A stretch of DNA of 64,000 bases from Octopus vulgaris (Eukaryota). The stretch is taken from positions 47,554,001 through 47,618,000 of the forward strand of contig OX597823.1 of assembly GCA_951406725.2 (NCBI GenBank), read 5' to 3'. Below, one piece after another: positions 10,596 to 54,218 of the stretch. Under the pieces are notes generated by a model. It had not been told where the DNA came from. It saw nothing but the letters and a program-made list of their open reading frames with translations, and did not search any database. The stretch's first letter is position 1. Each line of letters opens with the position of its first letter. The position numbers and the translations under genes were made by a program.

Positions 10596-10631
10596 GCATT
10601 GACTGTGATAAACATCTAACTGTGATACAGA

Positions 10632-12089
10632 ATGAATACAGCCTCCAAAATTGCACCTACAAGCTCTAAGTACACCGTACAAGTGGTCACAAAATACATG
10701 TGTCGCAACTGTGGCCAGCAGTTTGAATCTACGGATGATATGGATGCTCACATTGAAACACACAATCGGGGAAATCCACCGCACAGCTGCTTCGTGTGCG
10801 GCAAGTCGTATCGCACGCCCTCCAAGCTGCGGCGTCACGTTCGCGTACACAGCGGTGAGAGACCGTATGCCTGCAGCCTGTGTGAGCGACGTTTTACGCG
10901 TTCCGACCATGTTAAGCAGCACATGAAGGTGCATCAACCCCAACGGCAGCGCAATCAGTGCCGACTGTGTGGGCTACGCTTCAGCAAACCAGCCACACTC
11001 TACACCCACCTTCAAGGCCATGGTATCGAAACCTTGCACATGTGCGATTTATGCGGAGAGACATTTCGGGAGGAGGACCACTTAGCTAGACACAAGAGAG
11101 TTCACCACGGCGGTGGTGGCGGTAACGGTGGAGTCGGTGGTGGTGGTGGCGGTGGTGTTGGCAACATCAACAGCAACAGCAATAACAGCAACAACAACAG
11201 CCAGGATACAATGCACCAGAATGCTGTCAGTACGACAACACTCGTAAGCGATGATATTGAGCAAGAATTTAAGATGGATCATAATAACGATGAGAATGTA
11301 AATGCTCTTTCCATTGCCTGTTTTGGTATGAGTGCAACAGGCAGCAACAGACTAACACCTGTACGCATCCTTCCAGATGAAAGCCGGCCAGCCTCCAACG
11401 AACAGCCTCCTCATTGTATGATAAGGCTTGACAATCCAGACAGATTCCTGGATCAGAGAATGTGCGACGATTACGAAAACAATGCACTGAACTTAAGCAC
11501 GAAACCAGACGTCAACACCACCCTGTCCTCCTGTTACACGCCCACTGAATCCACTCCTGTGACAAACCACAACCTAACATACATCAAAACAGAGCCAATC
11601 AACAATGGCGTAGGCATGTATATGACGCCTAACTACTCAGGAGAGGAAAGAAACGACGATTTGGGTGAACGTGGAGAGGAGAACTCTTCTTTGTCTGAAG
11701 AGCGGTTCACCGCAAGCTCTCCACTGATGCAAACTCCATACGCACATACTTTGCAAACGACTACAACAACTACCACGACTACAAACGGAGGCACGATTGC
11801 CTCTCTCTTGCAACAACACACAGATTCGATACCACCATCCTTTTCACTGCAACGAAATTCCCCACATTCTTCTGAGTCTTACCCACAGCCATTCCCAGGA
11901 AAAAGATACCATCATTGTATGTCTTGTGGTATCTGGTTCGAAGATCTGGCTATGAGTATGCTTCACAATAGTTTACATTACACAGATGGTCTCAATGAAT
12001 TCTCCTGTAAGAAATGCTCGAAAAAACTGAGCAACAGGCTGGAATTCACAGCACATTTAGTCTGGCACCTGGAACCTAACACTCAATGA
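10632..12089 (+). CDS. C2H2 zinc-finger transcription factor (485 aa): 5 N-terminal fingers plus a C-terminal Ikaros/Hunchback-like finger pair
   Basis: Long GC-richer ORF; C-x2-C-x12-H-x3-H motifs at aa 22-44, 51-73, 79-101, 108-130, 136-158, 429-449 and 459-479; near-canonical linker HSGERPY; poly-G, N/S and poly-T tracts; preceded by a splice acceptor. Confidence 0.95.
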   Translation: MNTASKIAPTSSKYTVQVVTKYMCRNCGQQFESTDDMDAHIETHNRGNPPHSCFVCGKSYRTPSKLRRHVRVHSGERPYACSLCERRFTRSDHVKQHMKVHQPQRQRNQCRLCGLRFSKPATLYTHLQGHGIETLHMCDLCGETFREEDHLARHKRVHHGGGGGNGGVGGGGGGGVGNINSNSNNSNNNSQDTMHQNAVSTTTLVSDDIEQEFKMDHNNDENVNALSIACFGMSATGSNRLTPVRILPDESRPASNEQPPHCMIRLDNPDRFLDQRMCDDYENNALNLSTKPDVNTTLSSCYTPTESTPVTNHNLTYIKTEPINNGVGMYMTPNYSGEERNDDLGERGEENSSLSEERFTASSPLMQTPYAHTLQTTTTTTTTTNGGTIASLLQQHTDSIPPSFSLQRNSPHSSESYPQPFPGKRYHHCMSCGIWFEDLAMSMLHNSLHYTDGLNEFSCKKCSKKLSNRLEFTAHLVWHLEPNTQ

Positions 12090-19868: not shown

Positions 19869-20973
19869 GGAGTTTATGAAACTTGTTGATGACTATAATG
19901 AGTTTGTTTTATTTCTTTGTTAAAAATAAAATTTAAACCCTTATTGTTATTATTCTGTTGCGTTATTATCTAGCCATATGTTTTTGTTACCAATCTTTAT
20001 TTACTGACAAACTACATCTTACTGCTCGCAGCTATTCACTTAGACATTTTCATTTATTTGTTTTTTTGTTTTTTTTTTAAATGAATATTTCAGTTTGTTT
20101 TTATTTTATTTTATTCTTTTGTTATCAATTTATAATTTCAATTATTTTTCTCCCTAATGCTAGATTCCCAATATTTTCTAAATTGCTACCTTTTTTTTTT
20201 TTCTCTCTCTCTCTCTCTCTCACTTTGTTACATTCTCTCTTTTTCTTGCCTGCATCCCTTCTCTTATCTCCATTTGTTTTATCACATTAAAATATATTTA
20301 CACCATTTTCAAAGTGATTGAATTCAAAACTATCATTCATTTAGAATTTCCAATTTCTTCAATATCACCTATTAATTCTAATTAATGCCATTAATTTTAT
20401 CCCTTATTTCAATTAATTTTGTTCCCATAAATGCCAACAAAGAAATTTTTACATAGCACTTCTCAATGATTTGCTGATAATTTTAGAAATAATATTTTTC
20501 AAATTGGCTCAAAATAGAAATGGTTGTGCTTTAAAATGAAATAATGTCTGATATGGGGTTAAGTACTAAGTTTTATCAGTTATTAAATAATAAACTCCAA
20601 ATGATATAATTAAGAAAGGATGGAGATCAATGTGTACAGCTACATATAAGTTTGATTGTGTATACATGTGTATAATAAAATAGACTTTCATATAACTGTG
20701 TGTGTATACATGCAATGTGCAAAGATGTGGAATTAAGCACCACATTTGACCCTCGAACTCACATCTAACCAGCATGGTAATAGTGGTTGTAAAATGGTGA
20801 GATGTCTATCTTCATGTGTATGTATGTGAATGTATGTATATATATATATATATACACACTACTTTATACATATATTTGTGTATGTATGTATGTGTGTGTG
20901 TGTATATATATATATATACATATAAATTGATAGAATGGGATAAAAAAAAGACCATAACATCTATCAAGAAAAG

Positions 20974-21021
20974 GTCTTACAGCTGTTTTCATGATATTTT
21001 ATATGTCCCTTCATCAGAGAC
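20974..21021 (-). ncRNA. Minimal type I hammerhead ribozyme motif (decayed) in a Penelope-like short element (~20930-21200)
   Basis: Minus strand reads gtct-CTGATGA-agggacatataaaatatcat-GAAA-acagctgt-a-agac: stem I gtct/agac, palindromic stem III, GUA triplet; one extra A and a weakened stem II. Confidence 0.7.
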
Positions 21022-21224
21022 GGTGCGAGAAAATGTTTGAGTTTTAATTATTATAGAGAAGATATGAAATACAGAGGGAAAGAAGTGAATGAATATAGAA
21101 CTGAGATACGTAAGGATATATTTAGATACGCAATGGAATCCCATCGAACACAGTGTATGAGTGTTCAGATTTTGCCGAATGACCTGCGCAAATGATTTGT
21201 TTATGGTGGTGGTCAAATGTACAT

Positions 21225-21410
21225 GCTGTACATGAGGTCACTTCCTCCATCAAACTGACATTGTCTTTACAGGTGCATATGTCAGATGTCGAAATGATCC
21301 CAGAGCAACATGGAACTAAGTGTCCTGCTCAAGAACACAGCACACTACCCATTCCAGTAATCAAACCCACGATCTAACAATCATTAGTGCAATGCCCTAA
21401 ACACTGGGTC
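21225..21410 (-). mobile_element. tRNA/CORE-type SINE (family E)
   Basis: cagagcaacatggaactaagtgtcctgctcaagaacacag..., colinear with 52040-52228. Confidence 0.7.
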
Positions 21411-21826
21411 ATACAAACATATATAAATGAGATAAATTCTGCAAAAGTTTTGAGCAATGCAGGTGATGAATTATGCAAAATAAGTAGAAAAGCATCAATG
21501 AATGACAGCAACGGGTAAAGATATTATATATTATGTTACATAAATTTTTCAATTTTCCTATAGTAGTTTGGGGGAAAATTCTCAGTTTGAAAGAGAAGAA
21601 TGGAAACTATCAGAGCTCAGAGAAATGTGTTTTTACTTTCTTGTGTGTGTTTCCAAGTTGGAAGATGTAATCATCGTTTTTATGTCTGTTTTTCATTCAT
21701 TGCATTTGTTTTCTATGTCTTCTCCAGCAACCAGTAGCTCACTGTTAGTTGCTATTCTTTGTCATCCCTTTCATGAAATTCAGCCCTTATGAGACCACCT
21801 CTACCACTTTCTTCCTGTGCCTTCCT

Positions 21827-21870
<44 letters not shown>

Positions 21871-21939
21871 ATCATTCACAAACATGACACAGCTCAGTCT
21901 CTCTCCCTTGCCGAGTACATCTAATTTGCCCTATAATCA

Positions 21940-22090
21940 GACAAACTTCTTTCAGTTTCCATCTACCAAAATCCCCTCACAAGGCTTTGGCCAGCCTGAG
22001 GCTTTAGTAGAAGACACTTCCCCAAGAAAGTAGGACTGAACCTGCCACCATGGGGTTTGAAAGCAAACTTCTTACCACAGAATTGCACCT
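21940..22090 (-). mobile_element. SINE family A head
   Basis: ttctttcagtttccatctaccaaa...tagtagaagacactt...gaaagcaaacttcttaccacag. Confidence 0.75.
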
Positions 22091-22479
22091 GTCCATCTTT
22101 TCCTTATTCTTCTTCCAGAATTTCTACATCCTTCGCATTCATTGCCCATTTTTCACTACCATTCAGTGTATCACCTAATGCAAAGAAATCATCCAGTCTG
22201 CCCTTCACACAGAGGGAGAATCCTTTTATTTTATTTTACCAGCACAGGTTATTGCTCCCTGGACTTTTCCAGCTTCTTCTTACTCTGGCTTTCAGAACAC
22301 CTACCATAGACCCCTGTAAGCATTTCAAAATATTTATTTCATGAGTGATCTTACTGCTAACTCCTCTTGCACATCTCTCATATATAAGACTTCTTGTTCT
22401 CACACTCGACAAGGTATATATATTTATATATATATATAAATTTATGCAGCCTTGGGTATACCATACAGAACATTTACCT

Positions 22480-22870
22480 ATTTTCAGTGACTGGATGGTG
22501 CTCACTTGTTTCCACCCTTCACCTTTGTCACAAGGAAACTAATATTTCTCCCATGGCTAGACATGTTCCTACAGTATATTGGAAATTAATCACACTGCTT
22601 GTATGACAGTGAGACTCATTTTCAACTATCATTAGATGTCAAGACAAGAAGACACAAACACACACATACACATATACATATATATATATATATAGAAAGA
22701 GAAAGAGAGGTAGGCTTCTTTCATTTTCTGTCTACTAGATACGTTCACAAGGCTTTAGAGAACCCAGGACTGTACTAGAAGATACTTGCCCAAGATGCCA
22801 CCCAATGAGACAGATAGTGAAAACATGTGGTTGGAAAGCAAACTTCTTAAGCACAGAAATACCTGCATCT
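22480..22870 (-). mobile_element. Composite SINE (family A head + family C body)
   Basis: Family A head at 22715-22870, an internal microsatellite, then a body ending gactggatgg... related to 54325-54650 and 48430-48905. Confidence 0.6.
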
Positions 22871-23105
22871 CCACACTTCCATTCCTGTGTTGCATATGTA
22901 AATATGTGTGTGTGTGTGTGTGTGTGTGAGCCTTTATATGTATATATGTGTTTGTATATGTGTACATGTGTGTGTATATTTATATATATATATATATAAA
23001 TATATGTGTGTGGGTATATATGTATATAAGCAATAATAATAATAATAAGGATTATTACGAAGTTGCATTGCTTTTAATTCTTTTGATATATATACAGCTT
23101 TACAT

Positions 23106-23191
23106 AGACCTATACGTGTTTCAAGTGCACCGATTAGTAACTGTTGCAATTGCAAAGCTACTATAGTACCAGTACAGTTTCTTCAGGGTCT
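23106..23191 (-). ncRNA. Type I hammerhead ribozyme motif with long stem II
   Basis: Minus strand reads agacc-CTGAAGA-aactgtactggt...atcggtgcactt-GAAA-cacgta-TA-ggtct: 5-bp stem I, extended stem II capped by ttgcaattgcaa, ACGT palindrome in stem III with one mismatch. Confidence 0.75.
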
Positions 23192-23207
23192 TCGCTTAAC
23201 ATCCCTT

Positions 23208-23247
<40 letters not shown>

Positions 23248-24707
23248 TGTAGAGGGAACTTACTCTTACCAATTTGTGGTGACTCTTTGACATAAAAAAA
23301 AAACTTGAAATAAAAAGAACAATAGACATAAAAACATTAAGAAGAGGACAACAGTAGGTAGACTTAGGCAGCAATAACTGCATCACATCTGCCCTATCAC
23401 AGAGGGCTTCTTGCAAATGTATACATCCATATATACATGTGTGTGTGTGTGTGCATATATATTCTTTTATTTGTTTCAGCAATTTGACTATGGCCATGCT
23501 GGAGCACCATCTTGATATATATATATATTATATATATGTATATGTGTATATATATATATATATATACATATATACACACACACACATGCAAATGTGTCTG
23601 CATAGATATTTATATTGTTAAATTTTCAAGATTTCTCACCAATAGAGGAAGCAATGCTCTTCCATAAGAAACAAGACTTATCCACTGAAATTTAGACAAC
23701 ATGAACAGGGTAGTCATATATGCATACATATATGTATATAAACATGTGCATATATATATATATATGTGTGTGTGTGTATGTGTACATGCCTCTATATATG
23801 TCAACTTCATTGAATGCTACACTTGTATGTTTGGCATTTTGGCAGTACCTTTCATAGCATGTTGCTGTGATCTCTTGTTGAAGCATGTCTTTCTTGTTTC
23901 TGTGAAACTCGGTTTCTTACAATTGGTAGTGAGGCAATTGGTCACTAGTCTAAATACTCCAGTAATTATAGGTAGAAGTTCTAAAGATGGTCAAGATTGA
24001 GAGACTAAACATTTGCCGTTGTTTTGGCATGTATATGTGTCTATATGTATGGCATACATATATGAATGTATGTGTGTGTGTGTAGTTATGAATGTATACA
24101 TATATAAAGATATAAATATACATACATTATATATATATATTTATCATTTGTATATATAGTTGCATATATGGAAGTATATACATATGTGCATTAATTGGTA
24201 TGTATATCTATATTTTTACCATCATTTAATATCCAATTTCCCATGCTGGCATATTTTTATACATACATACATACATGTGTGTGTGCGTGTAATTAAATGA
24301 ATTTTTAATTGCTTTTTGTTTAATGAAGGGAAATAACCTACTGAATTAATAAGTGGCTAAGTTCCAGTGATATGTGTATTCTTAATGTAATTCTTATGAA
24401 AAATTTGCATGGCTGTGTTTGCAACATAGTTGGATTTAGAATTACAGGTATGAGCTGTCTAGTAAATTTTGCAGAGTTTTTATCTACCTATTTTCATGAA
24501 CAGGACTTATGCTCTTATATATTTGTTGAAGATGTATGAGGATTGAACCAGGTAACTCAGCCGTGAAACAAGCTTCTTAAGCATTCAGCCACATGGCATT
24601 CACAAGCTGACGACCACACTCATACATATACATATATATGCATATATATATATATGTGTCTCTATATTTATATATGTGTGTGTTTACCTGTTCATATGCA
24701 TATAAAG

Positions 24708-24738
<31 letters not shown>

Positions 24739-25081
24739 GGATACATGTATATGTAAAATATGTGTATGTATATTGTGTGTGTATATGTATATACTTCTAT
24801 ATGTATGAAAATATGTGCTTGTATCTATATGTATATAAATATGAGTATATGCATGAATTTCTGCGTAAATCTATGTAAATGCATACACATATATACATAC
24901 ATATATGTGTATAGATGTAAGAATCTATAAATATATATTTATACATACGTATGTATATATATTTATACACTTACATTCATATATAGTATTATATGCACAT
25001 ATACATATATATATGTTATATATAGTTTTATATATATAGAAAATTCAAAAGAGGAGAATGCTGGTGTTATTTAGCTATTCC

Positions 25082-25166
25082 ATTCTTACACGTGTTTCAG
25101 TGATGATTATAACCTAATTATATAACTTATGGCAGATTTATTTATATCTTCACTTCACTAGAGATT
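25082..25166 (-). ncRNA. Decayed type I hammerhead ribozyme motif
   Basis: Minus strand reads aatct-ctagtga (cf. CTGATGA)-agtgaagat...atcatcact-GAAA-cacgtg-TA-agaat; stems II and III intact, core has two changes. Confidence 0.55.
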
Positions 25167-25340
25167 TCTCCAACTAAAATAATCAGATTCTCTTCACAGC
25201 CTTTCTATGTATAACGATGCAGATAGAATTCTCATAGTGGTACTGCTTTTATATAATGCACTTTATCTGGTACTAAACATATATATACGTATAAAAACAC
25301 ATGTTATTTTGTCTCTAAATTATATGTTAATGTTATGGCG

Positions 25341-25412
25341 CAGTTACTGATGAGAATTTCACCTAGCAAATTATTTTATTTGCTAAAAAACTTTGAGACC
25401 TAGGTATAACCG
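25341..25412 (+). ncRNA. Type I hammerhead ribozyme motif (GAAA changed to GAGA)
   Basis: cagtta-CTGATGA-gaatttcacc tagcaaat tatttt atttgcta aaaaacttt-GAGA-cctagg-TA-taaccg: stem I 5/6 bp, perfect 8-bp hairpin in stem II, palindromic stem III, GUA triplet. Confidence 0.7.
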
Positions 25413-28157
25413 TAAAAACTAGCACGGTAAAAGTTTTTGTTTTTCATTCCCTTCGAAATTGCTCTTAAATGTGGGTTTGGTCATTTTGACTGTTTCTTCT
25501 AGCGTGTAAAATTACCTGTTAAAGATAGTTTCTCTTGTGTTTCAATGTATACTATTTTATATTGAATTATATATAGGTAGTTTGACATGTCTGTCTGAAT
25601 ATGTATGTACATATATATAAACATACATATCTGAATACATATATATATATATATATATGTTAATAAAATAGAACATATGCATATATATAAACATATATGT
25701 ACGTACCTACCTCTACATGTACATATACACGCATATATATATATATATATTTACATGTATGTATGTTTGTTCTTGTATACCTAGTTTTATGCCTATGAAA
25801 AACAAAATTCAGTTTAAGATATTTGTGTGTATACATATATATGTGTGTGTGTGTGTGTTTATGTATAGTTATGTAAATGTGTATGTATGTATTCATTTAT
25901 ATGCATGAATCATCAAATTTTGACAAATATTTTGTTTGTTTAATGCTTGAAATGCAGACTTTAGTCCAGATATAGGTATATATTTCCGAAAATCAGGGAG
26001 GTGATTTTTCGTTAGGTGTGCCTTCAAAAAGCCCCTTAAGTCACAGTCAACTATGACTGCTGAAGTCCTTTATCAGAAACAAAAAACAAAAACCGAGAGT
26101 GAGAAAAATTAGGGAACATATAGCAAAAGATATTTACAGAATTTTAGAAAGTTAGAAAAGTACAAAATTTTAAGAATTGATTTAAACTTTAGAGCAATGA
26201 ACAGTTTGGAGACATCCTCATCATCCAGTGTTTTAAATTTGGGTTTTGTCCTCGTTAATGGGGGTGGCCAGATCTACCTCACTGCCATAGCAACTTAGGT
26301 AGGCAGTCCACGCCAATCTTTGGGCTGGCTGGTGCCCATTCTCCTTTGCTAACATGAGGCTTTTTTAGAGCTAGATTTTCTACAGGGAGCATGTCCTTGC
26401 TTACTCCCAACCTCAGTTTCTAGACATGAGTGGTCCCAAGACCAAACCCTCTACCACGAGGTAATGCTGTTCTATGGTGATTTTGAGGCTGAGTAAGGAG
26501 GAAAGGGACAAATGTATATTCATATATTATTGCATATGTGTGCACAGCCTATCGATTAAGATGCTAGGCTCACAATCTTAAATTCATGAGTTCAATTCCT
26601 AGATCAGGGTAGTGTATTATGTTAACAAGGAAAATCATTTGCTTGCTGTGCAAGACTACTTAACTGAAACAAATATCAGGTGATTGTCTTTGCTGCCATC
26701 TCTCCCACTTCAGATGTTACACCTTTCATGTTTAGCTATGTCAGTGATGTCAAGGCCAGAAAGGTGACTGTCAGCTTGCAATTACTTAGGTACTTAAAGC
26801 TATAAGCAAAACTATGGTGCATTCATAATGTTTATACTTCCTTACTAGTGATCACTGGATTGTTATGTATGAAAATAAATGTGTGCGTATGTATAAATGT
26901 CTCTGTATACATGTTACATTTGTGTGTATATGCACATATGTGTATTATATGTGTATGTATATTATATGCATGTAGATTATGTATATGTATATATGTATGC
27001 ATATTTGCATATATATATATGTATATATGAGTGTATATACATATGTATGTATATATGAGTGTATATATATATACATACGTATGTATGTATATATACATAT
27101 AAATACATACATGTGATATCACTTTATATCTGTTTTCCTAATTTCTTTTGAACAGATTGTCTATGTTTGAGTCAATTCCCACTGGCATTTACCCTCCTGT
27201 TAGGGGTTTCTGTGACACCTGTACCTCGCTTCCATTTCTTTTGACATGGTTTCTATGACTGGATGTTCCTTGCAACACCAACTTTTTTGCAAAGTATACT
27301 GGCTACAGTTTATCTTGACACCAGCACTAGTGTGGTTGTCCTTTCCTCAAAAACACAAGGCAACATCTATCTGACACCATCATGCTTCTGCTCATTCACC
27401 TCAGACTTATCAGAGTTTATACAGTGCATTTTATCTAAGCACTTTGTGTCTTCTAAAGCAGAAAAGAATTCTTACTGCCCTACATATGTTTCAAAGAAGA
27501 GAGTGAAATTGATGATACAGTACTAGAGCAGTATTAAGATGTGGTAGTAACTGCAGTATTTGCAGTTCAGAGGAGTACAAAATTTATGGATATTCAGTGG
27601 TGTGTGCTGTGGATGCTAGTGACAGTGATAATATTACCAAGCGAGAGGGAGAAGCAAGCAGTCTATATTGAAGTAAGGTGGGGATAATATTAACATGGTG
27701 ATTAAGAGGTTGAGATGGAGAAAGAAAGGGAGTGAAGACTGTGACTAGATTGTATAGAACAATATATGCAACTAGTTAAACAAGTAACTGTCAATGAAAT
27801 GTATGTGTCTCTAGTTATATGTGTGTGTGTGTCGTGATGGCTTTATATGTGGATATGTATATTTATATATGTATGTCTGTTGTTGGGATTATATATACAG
27901 ATACATGCAAATACCTATGCATATATAAACAATGCTTTCATAATATAGATTGTTATATCAACCAGTCAGTGACCATTCAAAACAGCTGTAAATATATGAA
28001 ATGATTACATTATGTAAATTGTATACACAAATTTCTGTATATACATGAGTACATATACATGTATACACACACATATTCCTTATGTCTGCTATCATTTGTT
28101 TTCTATGTATATATACATGCACTCATCTACATACACACATACACCTATATGTGTATA

Positions 28158-53550: not shown

Positions 53551-53917
53551 CTATAAGTACAGGCATTGCTTCAATTAGGTTCTTAATCATAAGGCATTGA
53601 TTTCAATTCCCAGTGAAAGGAATTGGACAAGGTACTTTACTTTATGTTGGTGCAGTCAATGAGCAAGTAAAAAATGAGTTTTAAGACTCATAGAGCACTT
53701 TGTTGGTGCCAAGATAGCATGGCACCAATGTTTTCATGGTAAGGCATTGGTTCATAGATTTCAGACTAGATGTCAACCAATCAATCCCAGAAATCATCTC
53801 ATAGTTATAGACACTGTCCCTCTTACCCTAACCACACACACACACTCTCTCTCTCTTTCTCCCCCCCCTCTCTATATATATGTATGTCTATATACATAAA
53901 TGTATGTATATATAATA

Positions 53918-54218
53918 ACGAAACTAGACAGATGAGTGACAGCCTGGCCACTAGTGGTGGTGTAACACACCATACTAATCATATCTGTCAGGCATGTGGA
54001 AGAGAGTGTAATTCGGCAGGAGGACTTAAACGACATGCAAAGGTACATGAAGCCCAGTTACAACTACAGCCAGCTATTACCAGTAAAGGTCTTAGTTGCC
54101 AATTTTGTACAAGACTTTGTAGATCTTTAGCTGGGCTAAAAAGTCACATTCGATCACAGCACCAGTAACAGTGAAGCTTCGTGCAATAGCCATACTCGAT
54201 AACGAGGGGGCAACCATA
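53918..54218 (+). mobile_element. 5'-truncated RTE-type LINE: C-terminal two C2H2 fingers, stop codon and 3' stem-loop
   Basis: CQACGRECNSAGGLKRHAKVH and CQFCTRLCRSLAGLKSHIRSQH match the RTE C-terminal C..C.R.C.S..GL.SH.R.H finger; 3' hairpin ctcg-ataa-cgag; candidate TSD atatataata at 53908-53917 and 54219-54228. Confidence 0.8.

Follow-up and report, generated by a model that had tools for sequence, protein, structure and literature searches.

Four mutated hammerhead motifs in a TA-rich stretch of the Octopus vulgaris genome as likely end-pieces of Penelope-like elements

Why do four different minimal hammerhead ribozyme motifs lie within 4.4 kb of one another in the genome of Octopus vulgaris? 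A first-pass annotation of the window (the whole 64,000-nucleotide stretch analyzed here, contig OX597823.1, positions 47,554,001 to 47,618,000) had proposed that each belongs to an independent family of short, non-autonomous, ribozyme-bearing retroelements inserted in (TA)n. We find that each motif is very probably a mutated hammerhead, likely no longer active, carried on a 3' end that 5' truncation has left behind. The four ends represent four unrelated families (F1 to F4), all likely Penelope-like (Hydra-type), whose landings in TA-rich DNA were likely independent. The motifs are ordinary end-pieces of an already described type of mobile element, and only F4 adds anything.

Four motifs against the genomic background

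We searched the window with a descriptor of the order stem I / CUGANGA / stem II / GAAA / 6-nt palindrome / UH / stem I. Exactly four matches with three or fewer defects were detected, at 20974-21021 (-), 23107-23190 (-), 25083-25165 (-) and 25343-25410 (+), compared with a mean of 0.27 in block shuffles (n = 30); at two or fewer defects, there were two real matches and none in the 30 shuffles. The four placements are therefore confirmed, and shuffled sequence does not yield such motifs at a similar rate. The motifs are M1 (20974-21021, minus strand; loop CAGCUG; predicted cut after 20978), M2 (23106-23191, minus strand; long stem II, loop CACGUA; predicted cut after 23111; z -3.3), M3 (25082-25166, minus strand; loop CACGUG; predicted cut after 25087) and M4 (25341-25412, plus strand; loop CCUAGG; predicted cut after 25406). 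The stem III palindromes given earlier hold for M1, M3 and M4, but the loop of the M2 family is CAUGUG (16/30 copies), with CACGUG in only 2/30. The Rfam scan of the window gave 391 weak matches; none of the 150 listed was to a hammerhead family, and those listed were only TA-repeat hits on miRNA models.

The minimal type I core (CUGANGA ... GAAA ... UH) is present in the family majorities, whereas all four window copies are defective. Compared with its family majority, M1 carries A in place of G12, has a weaker stem II and, in computed folds, forms an alternative hairpin; M2 has an A at G16.2, and M4 has GAGA in place of GAAA. The core of M3 has decayed to CUAGUGA instead of CUGANGA. Because each carries a core or core-adjacent change, all four window copies are likely dead.

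TA-rich repeats adjoin every motif-bearing piece: F1 ends 3' in a TA/TG-type microsatellite (20816-20920), F2 meets (TA)n on its truncated 5' side (23207-23245), and TA-rich arrays lie at the 3' end of F3 (24622-25038) and immediately past the 3' end of F4 (25599-25764). The description of the motifs as islands between TA microsatellites fails for M1, which has a TA array only on its 3' side and none listed 5' near 21119.

Next, we considered whether the cluster is itself unusual. Random tiles totaling 400 kb contained 16 such motifs compared with a null of 0.67, equating to ∼1 per 25 kb and an estimated 10^5 motifs genome-wide, so that four in one window is background (P = 0.26). Given four in the window and uniform insertion, their confinement to 4.4 kb has a P of about 0.001-0.002. 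This improbable spacing would fit a functional host locus, for example one in which the ribozymes process a local transcript or the facing M3 and M4 cooperate. We regard that explanation as highly improbable: none of the window copies is free of changes in or next to the core, the strands are mixed, the stems I and palindromes do not match one another, and ∼90 equally tight clusters are expected genome-wide by chance. Further, the window copies of F1, F2 and F4 are farther from their family majorities (0.82, 0.77 and 0.81) than the average sampled copy (0.87, 0.85 and 0.87), a gap that partly reflects search selection. The tight spacing is rare yet requires no system; being improbable under uniform insertion, it may owe something to a local TA-rich insertion hot spot. 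As background in a genome with so many motifs, the cluster itself is unimportant.

Ends of protein-coding elements and their probable clade

Minimal hammerheads are known from the terminal repeats (pLTRs) of metazoan Penelope-like elements (PLEs; Cervera and de la Pena 2014, PMC4209133). As described there, they are of type I, with a short stem I, a long stem II and a palindromic helix III; they form many families per genome, are mostly solo motifs from truncated PLEs, are proposed to act as dimers and sometimes occur in opposite-strand pairs 100-700 bp apart. The octopus motifs resemble them in these respects but have a helix III that is a 6-nt palindrome inside an A-U pair and a stem II of up to 57-60 nt.

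The F1 copy (20901-21119, minus strand) is read as the 5'-truncated pLTR of a PLE that ends at the first 3' site, in the TA array, and it is an 82% match to the natural copy L040; 40 of the 1549 first-look candidates of this family were scored. The F2 copy (23030-23204, minus strand, the 23030 end being approximate) appears to be the 5'-truncated pLTR of a Hydra-type PLE, with its truncation ∼15 nt before the hammerhead. Both core halves and the C15.2/G16.2 pair are intact in 22/30 copies of F1 and in 11/30 each of F2 and F4. F1, F2 and F4 all show PLE traits, namely 5' truncation, an optional 3' tail and back-to-back inverted 5' partners (9/29, 5/30 and 20/71 loci, respectively). The first-pass annotation's claims of minimal type I hammerheads of Penelope-like elements and of several independent multicopy families ending in (TA)n are borne out; each motif belongs to a dispersed family whose majority core is intact.

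The claim that the families are non-autonomous fared differently. As noted before, the window holds no Penelope ORF, and no Penelope protein match was found within the 64 kb. Elsewhere in the genome, a PLE protein match was present in 12/30 F2 loci, and the longer F2 copies extend up to ∼900 nt upstream of the repeat into GIY-YIG endonuclease sequence (E = 0.0015, under the Pfam cut-off); one F2 locus (L132) retains an RT fragment with 43% identity to the RT of an intact element. F2 is therefore linked to Penelope RT/GIY-YIG coding sequence lying upstream of its ribozyme-bearing repeat. For F1, it is the start of an ORF that lies downstream, the tail entering the ORF N terminus (42% identical) in 1/30 loci only (L049). 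Self-comparisons of F1 and F2 revealed no short head-to-tail period. These results bear on the proposal that all four are dedicated, ribozyme-driven retrozyme families: they refute it for F2 and, weakly, for F1. It holds for F4 and a sister family (described below); for the four together, we consider it very improbable. On sequence grounds, M1 and M2 are 5'-truncated pLTRs of protein-coding PLEs.

Protein motifs, rather than a tree, point to the Hydra clade as the home of the M1 and M2 parents. This clade of C-terminal EN+ PLEs (Craig et al. 2021, PMC8557442), which includes the octopus member Hydra-1_Obim, is defined there by RW(K), DKT, a CxCx5C linker, CxxC and CxH around E and N, and the lack of CCHH, and its members have a canonical hammerhead near the 3' end and insert into (TA)n. 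Consistent with this, TA-rich repeat follows the F4 ends in 51/70 cases, with F1 and F2 alike by eye, and the F2-type endonuclease loci carry the CxCx5C linker (16/30), CxxC-EE (13/30) and CxH (21/30). The ORF start joined to F1 has a broken RW-like stretch; the F2 N terminus was not recovered, so RWK/DKT is not seen there. Assignment to the Neptune clade was rejected, because its CX2-5CxxC linker and CCHH finger are absent from L129 (an intact element elsewhere in the genome) and from the F2 frames, where no cysteine pair was found between the IY and YIG motifs; the Neptune linker pattern occurs in 7 of 120 listed homologues.

L129 has the order pLTR-ORF-pLTR, with an 899-aa ORF in a 3.7-kb unit and 331-bp terminal repeats that are 99% identical and each carry a CACGUG hammerhead. 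It has RIRWL and DKT (RW and DKT occur in 98 and 112 of the 120 listed homologues, respectively) but differs from the described Hydra clade in its size and in lacking the linker cysteines of CxCx5C, and its 899-aa ORF had no RT match in Pfam or PDB. As a young, intact copy, it is usable for biochemistry. The ribozyme listed for Hydra-1_Obim differs from all four window motifs. The clade was based on few families and is called small in PMC8557442; here it seems to contribute repeats on a large scale, with many families and the estimated 10^5 motifs, clade membership having been checked for few. Penelope-like families in an octopus are also reported in PMC13282606, in passages that do not mention ribozymes. 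In the literature searched, we found no paper describing F1 to F4, although Repbase, Dfam, the Zenodo set or the supplements of a 2026 preprint (10.64898/2026.07.22.740005) may hold them.

F3 (25050-25180, minus strand, approximate limits) appears to be an old, diverged hammerhead-bearing repeat end. A DNA search with M3 returned only itself, and the family emerged from pattern searches (32 matches compared with 0 in the reversed control) and alignment, in which 2 of the 30 rows (L236 and L241) are mis-oriented and uninformative. Same-strand coding matches were found in 0/30 F3 loci and opposite-strand matches in 2/30, and no parent element was found.

An ORF-less tandem family and its sister

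The description as a non-autonomous, ribozyme-bearing family does fit M4. The F4 copy (25297-25564, plus strand) comes from a ∼461-nt tandem mini-element that has no ORF; it has lost its 5' part and is an 85% match to the natural dimer L192. F4 and its 65%-identical sister family each have about 2,300-2,400 first-look candidates (2426 for F4, of which 40 were scored). The F4 tandem period is 461-466 nt, with one type I hammerhead per monomer; the tail-to-head junction is crossed in 38/71 distinct loci and two ribozymes stand in tandem in 2/71. The longest stop-free frame is 101 codons, and the monomer is self-paired (circular MFE z -3.7). F4 is a retrozyme-like, ORF-less unit in partial head-to-tail tandems.

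Like the metazoan non-LTR retrozymes (Cervera and de la Pena 2020, PMC7229834), F4 is a non-coding, AT-rich tandem unit with a self-paired monomer. In contrast to them, it is dispersed as 0.3-2 units rather than in long arrays, it bears PLE insertion scars (inverted 5' partners and 3' ends in two clusters), and its ribozyme is minimal, PLE-type and palindromic, whereas the 2020 definition has a canonical ribozyme with loop 1-loop 2 contacts; F4 is known from DNA sequence. Li, Clavereau and Pollet, in the 2026 preprint, argue that retrozymes (units 51-972 bp) are non-autonomous pLTR derivatives and admit minimal ribozymes, in a genome set that includes no mollusc.

Between F4 and the sister family, stem I changes from GGUUA/UAACC to CCUG/CAGG, the base of stem II from GAAUU/AAUUY to GACU/AGUC and the loop from CCUAGG to CCAUGG, such that, in this between-family comparison, both stems have changed in a compensatory manner.

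F4 likely hitchhikes on the protein of other elements, and no parent element was found for F4 or for the sister family. Three kinds of candidate link were rejected: an endonuclease upstream of the F4 locus L085 is of another family, 0/29 other copies of which continue into F4; an ORF that follows the sister-family copy L318 is part of a different family, in which that tail precedes 1/30 copies; and matches in L089, L187 and L200 are either on the other strand or past a finished 3' end. One of the 29 other copies of the L085-upstream endonuclease family holds a sister-family piece. F4 pieces were present in 4/4 contig sets guessed to be RNA, which are of uncertain kind and do not show transcription, cut sites or circles.

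Insertion into (TA)n and proposed cleavage as dimers

We posit that the insertions arise as follows. A tandem transcript would be bound by the element's RT/GIY-YIG protein, which would nick (TA)n; F4 would use a Hydra-type protein supplied in trans. Reverse transcription would begin at an internal position of the RNA, 100-350 nt beyond the ribozyme, and would usually stop early, such that most insertions would consist of the ribozyme-bearing end alone. For F4 and its sister, we tentatively extend this to a reading that is plausible but somewhat short of probable: they may be ∼460-nt ORF-less mini-Penelopes copied in trans by a Hydra-clade RT/endonuclease, with the nicked (TA)n priming through internal UAU words and the co-change of stem I and palindrome keeping dimers private.

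The priming step has a serious competitor, to which we give a little less than an even chance, namely that the words at the 3' ends reflect later slippage deletion between (TA)n and an internal TAT rather than paired priming. Among M4-family copies, the 3' boundary falls on an internal TAT word abutting (TA)n in 37/51, compared with 9.6% expected. Microsatellites are unstable, and copies that are 10-20% diverged have had time enough to slip; in addition, the purified PLE of the anole (Poseidon PAc; Frangieh et al. 2024, PMC11167929) begins reverse transcription in the absence of homology with the cleaved DNA. However, the 3' ends of each family fall into two zones ∼85-190 nt apart, matching the two internal start sites and optional tail known from PAc. 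Moreover, L318 is joined to a non-microsatellite target through a common TAAT, and in L129, a young element, the end likewise falls at an ATA word. PAc, which resembles the octopus families further in its AT-rich targets, differs from them in its very short tail and, as to homology, from F4, the ends of which share TAT with the target. The anole ribozyme is reported there to be dispensable for insertion in vitro.

F4 and its sister offer clean natural material for asking whether PLE proteins mobilize retrozyme-like RNAs and how priming works at (TA)n targets. If true, the mini-Penelope reading would supply direct evidence from the genome for movement of retrozyme-like units by target priming of the PLE type, not only by local tandem expansion.

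Dimer cleavage is the subject of a paper by Lunse et al. (as cited in PMC6765202). Here, the computed stem III is unstable as a monomer hairpin (+2.0 to +2.4 kcal/mol) and stable as a homoduplex (-6.0 to -11.4 kcal/mol). On this model, active copies would cut as dimers, in which the 8-nt palindromes of two copies would pair with stems I swapped. The palindrome had been suggested to act as a family-specific dimerization code. The same palindrome is common to several families, so alone it is no family code; the suggestion stands only for the palindrome together with stem I, which is also needed for dimer specificity because stem I of one partner must pair with the other.

Four hammerhead motifs in a TA-rich window

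The window, ~30% GC and rich in TA-type microsatellites, comes from contig C10 of assembly G000 (2.8 Gb, 227 contigs). A minimal type I hammerhead descriptor returned four matches with three or fewer defects in the 64 kb against 0.27 in shuffles, confirming the motifs M1 to M4 of the first-pass annotation at 20974-21021 (-), 23106-23191 (-), 25082-25166 (-) and 25341-25412 (+). Their mutated state was likewise confirmed: the defects fall at G12 in M1, at G16.2 in M2, within CUGANGA in M3 and within GAAA in M4. Since each copy carries a change at the core or next to it, established hammerhead chemistry makes it likely that all four are inactive. Further, only M2 folded better than its shuffles (z -3.3), and M1 is predicted to favour a different hairpin. 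The group sits ~9 kb beyond an open frame of 487 aa (10626-12089, +) that encodes several C2H2 zinc fingers (Pfam zf-C2H2, E 8e-23) and is likely an exon of a host gene; a 132-aa frame (53770-54168, +), in which two weak fingers of C2H2 type occur, is possibly a retroelement or gene fragment. A protein search of the window gave no Penelope match, in agreement with the earlier reading that no Penelope ORF is visible there. Other abundant short repeats, with many matches at unrelated loci, lie between the ribozyme elements (21900-22050, 22600-22850 and 23400-23550).

The same descriptor found 16 motifs in 40 random 10-kb tiles, compared with 0.67 in shuffles, which gives one motif every 25 kb and about 112,000 genome-wide. 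At least four motifs per 64 kb has P = 0.26, and four within 4.4 kb would occur in ~1 window in 500 under uniform insertion, with ~90 such cases expected genome-wide; (TA)n targets in common would raise this expectation. Because the motif copies are unrelated and their strands mixed, no joint function of the four is indicated.

Ribozyme families and their coding relatives

DNA searches with M1, M2 and M4 gave 1549, 483 and 2426 first-look candidates for their repeat families F1, F2 and F4, respectively; 40 of each were scored and lay within 78-93% identity. In the DNA search M3 matched only itself, and pattern searches for its family F3 gave 7 and 32 matches (controls, 0), which aligned as an old family with the majority core intact. 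Both core halves and C15.2/G16.2 were intact in 22/30 F1, 11/30 F2 and 11/30 F4 copies, and the loops CAGCUG, CAUGUG and CCUAGG were present in 20/30, 16/30 and 15/30, respectively. The islands are thus multicopy with intact consensus cores, through dispersed candidates for F1, F2 and F4 and through patterns and alignment for F3.

The proposed adjacency to Penelope reverse transcriptase (RT) or GIY-YIG sequence was also found for F2. Upstream, longer F2 copies run into a GIY-YIG endonuclease whose linker has the CxCx5C pattern, 12/30 F2 loci have a Penelope-like element (PLE) protein match, and one locus (L132) holds an RT fragment, 43% identical to the RT of an intact element, with an F2-type ribozyme downstream. 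The F1 tail continues into an ORF start at 1/30 loci (L049). F1 and F2 are thus ends of coding elements, the F1 link coming from that one locus.

Of 15,409 candidates from a protein search, 150 were scored, and one of these is an intact element (L129:3847-7834; G000:C5, about 7,066,800-7,070,800) consisting of an uninterrupted 899-aa ORF between 331-bp repeats that are 99% identical, each containing a CACGUG hammerhead. It has 398 relatives in the database. As described for the Hydra clade by Craig et al. 2021 (PMC8557442), criteria include RWK, DKT and the CxCx5C linker, CxxC and CxH flank E and N, CCHH is absent, and members, one from octopus, have canonical hammerheads and (TA)n insertion. 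L129 carries these motifs save the linker, whose cysteines it lacks, and a long low-complexity insert precedes its endonuclease; F2-type endonucleases carry them with the linker in 16/30 loci. Among the 120 homologues in the matches listed, 98-114 have Hydra motifs and 7 the linker pattern of Neptune, another PLE clade. Assigned by motif, the elements would be Hydra-type PLEs, and L129 a young-looking one.

In another abundant PLE family (L275-L304; 1774 candidates), the 3' region is long and TG-rich and the hammerhead is compact, with a CG loop. A common short hammerhead-like repeat (L133, L135, L137, L165, L179, L184, L045, L046) has a 2-nt CG loop and carries U or C where A6 is otherwise conserved (CUG-Y-NGA); it was not found in the window.

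F4, a gene-less tandem unit, and its sister family

Among 71 distinct F4 loci (90 fetched), 38 have a tail-to-head junction, at which sequence downstream of the ribozyme re-enters its upstream sequence with a period of 461-466 nt, and 2 hold a tandem pair of ribozymes. The longest frame without a stop is 101 codons, and PLE protein matches at 4/71 loci are linked to F4 in none; F4 carries no gene of its own. The monomer folds well as a computed circle (z -3.7, 30 shuffles). An inverted 5' partner, back to back, which is a PLE hallmark, accompanies 20/71 F4, 9/29 F1 and 5/30 F2 loci. Together these features suggest that F4 is a retrozyme-like derivative. A relation of this type, a retrozyme-like unit derived from a PLE, is argued in a 2026 preprint (10.64898/2026.07.22.740005). 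Two candidates for its parent element were examined, and neither held up. The description of the four motifs as non-autonomous ribozyme retroelement families is therefore partly supported, holding for F4, which has no gene, but not for F1 and F2 as ends of coding elements. From their sequences, the window elements would join kinds already described, as end pieces of Hydra-type PLEs and, in one case, as a retrozyme-like derivative.

When L066:1230-1860 was compared with sequence runs X1-X4, one X2 contig showed dense A-to-G differences near 1704-1750; these may resemble hyper-editing, with copy variation as the alternative.

A sister family (L305-L334; 2338 candidates; 65% identity to F4) has a period of 454-471 nt in 12/30 loci and the palindrome CCAUGG in 25/30. 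Relative to F4 it differs in stem I, at the base of stem II and in the palindrome, all altered together, and the inner hairpin is kept; the paired changes in stems I and II bear out the predicted covarying stems, and the joint stem and palindrome change is real covariation. The sister core is UUGAUGA in 16/30 copies (U at position 3, G8 kept) and CUGAUGA in 2/30, despite ~2,300 candidates, so that either the U3-G8 variant is tolerated or the family has spread independently of cleavage. At L318 (G000:C2, about 204,449,600), a sister-family tail joins directly, through a shared TAAT, an RT frame that belongs to another Hydra-type family.

3' ends and the palindrome as a code

Counted from the core, the 3' ends of three families fall in two zones each: near +120 and +270 in F1, near +160 and +352 in F2, and near +218 and +301 to +310 in F4. 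This agrees with the anole PLE Poseidon, for which two internal start sites and an optional tail have been described (Frangieh et al. 2024, PMC11167929). A TA-rich repeat follows 51/70 F4 ends, and 37 of these 51 ends fall, at seven sites, on an internal word of at least 3 alternating A/T bases, compared with 9.6% of simulated random ends. Paired priming, which differs from the homology-free start of purified Poseidon, would account for this; we offer it as a hypothesis, because the initial search favoured copies extending to +217, de-duplication was by sequence only, and slippage after insertion could have trimmed the ends to A/T words.

The palindrome had been proposed as a family-specific dimerisation code. 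Computed 8-nt palindrome hairpins are unstable (+2.0 to +2.4 kcal/mol) and homoduplexes stable (-6.0 to -11.4); 13/15 hetero-pairs are at -3.0 or weaker, and 2/15 equal or exceed the F2 homoduplex. CACGUG, CAGCUG, CAUGUG, CAUAUG, CAAUUG and CGAUCG are common to unrelated families. In the known dimer architecture stem I too forms between the two partners, and specificity therefore needs the palindrome and stem I together. Dimer action of such ribozymes is itself already described in published work.
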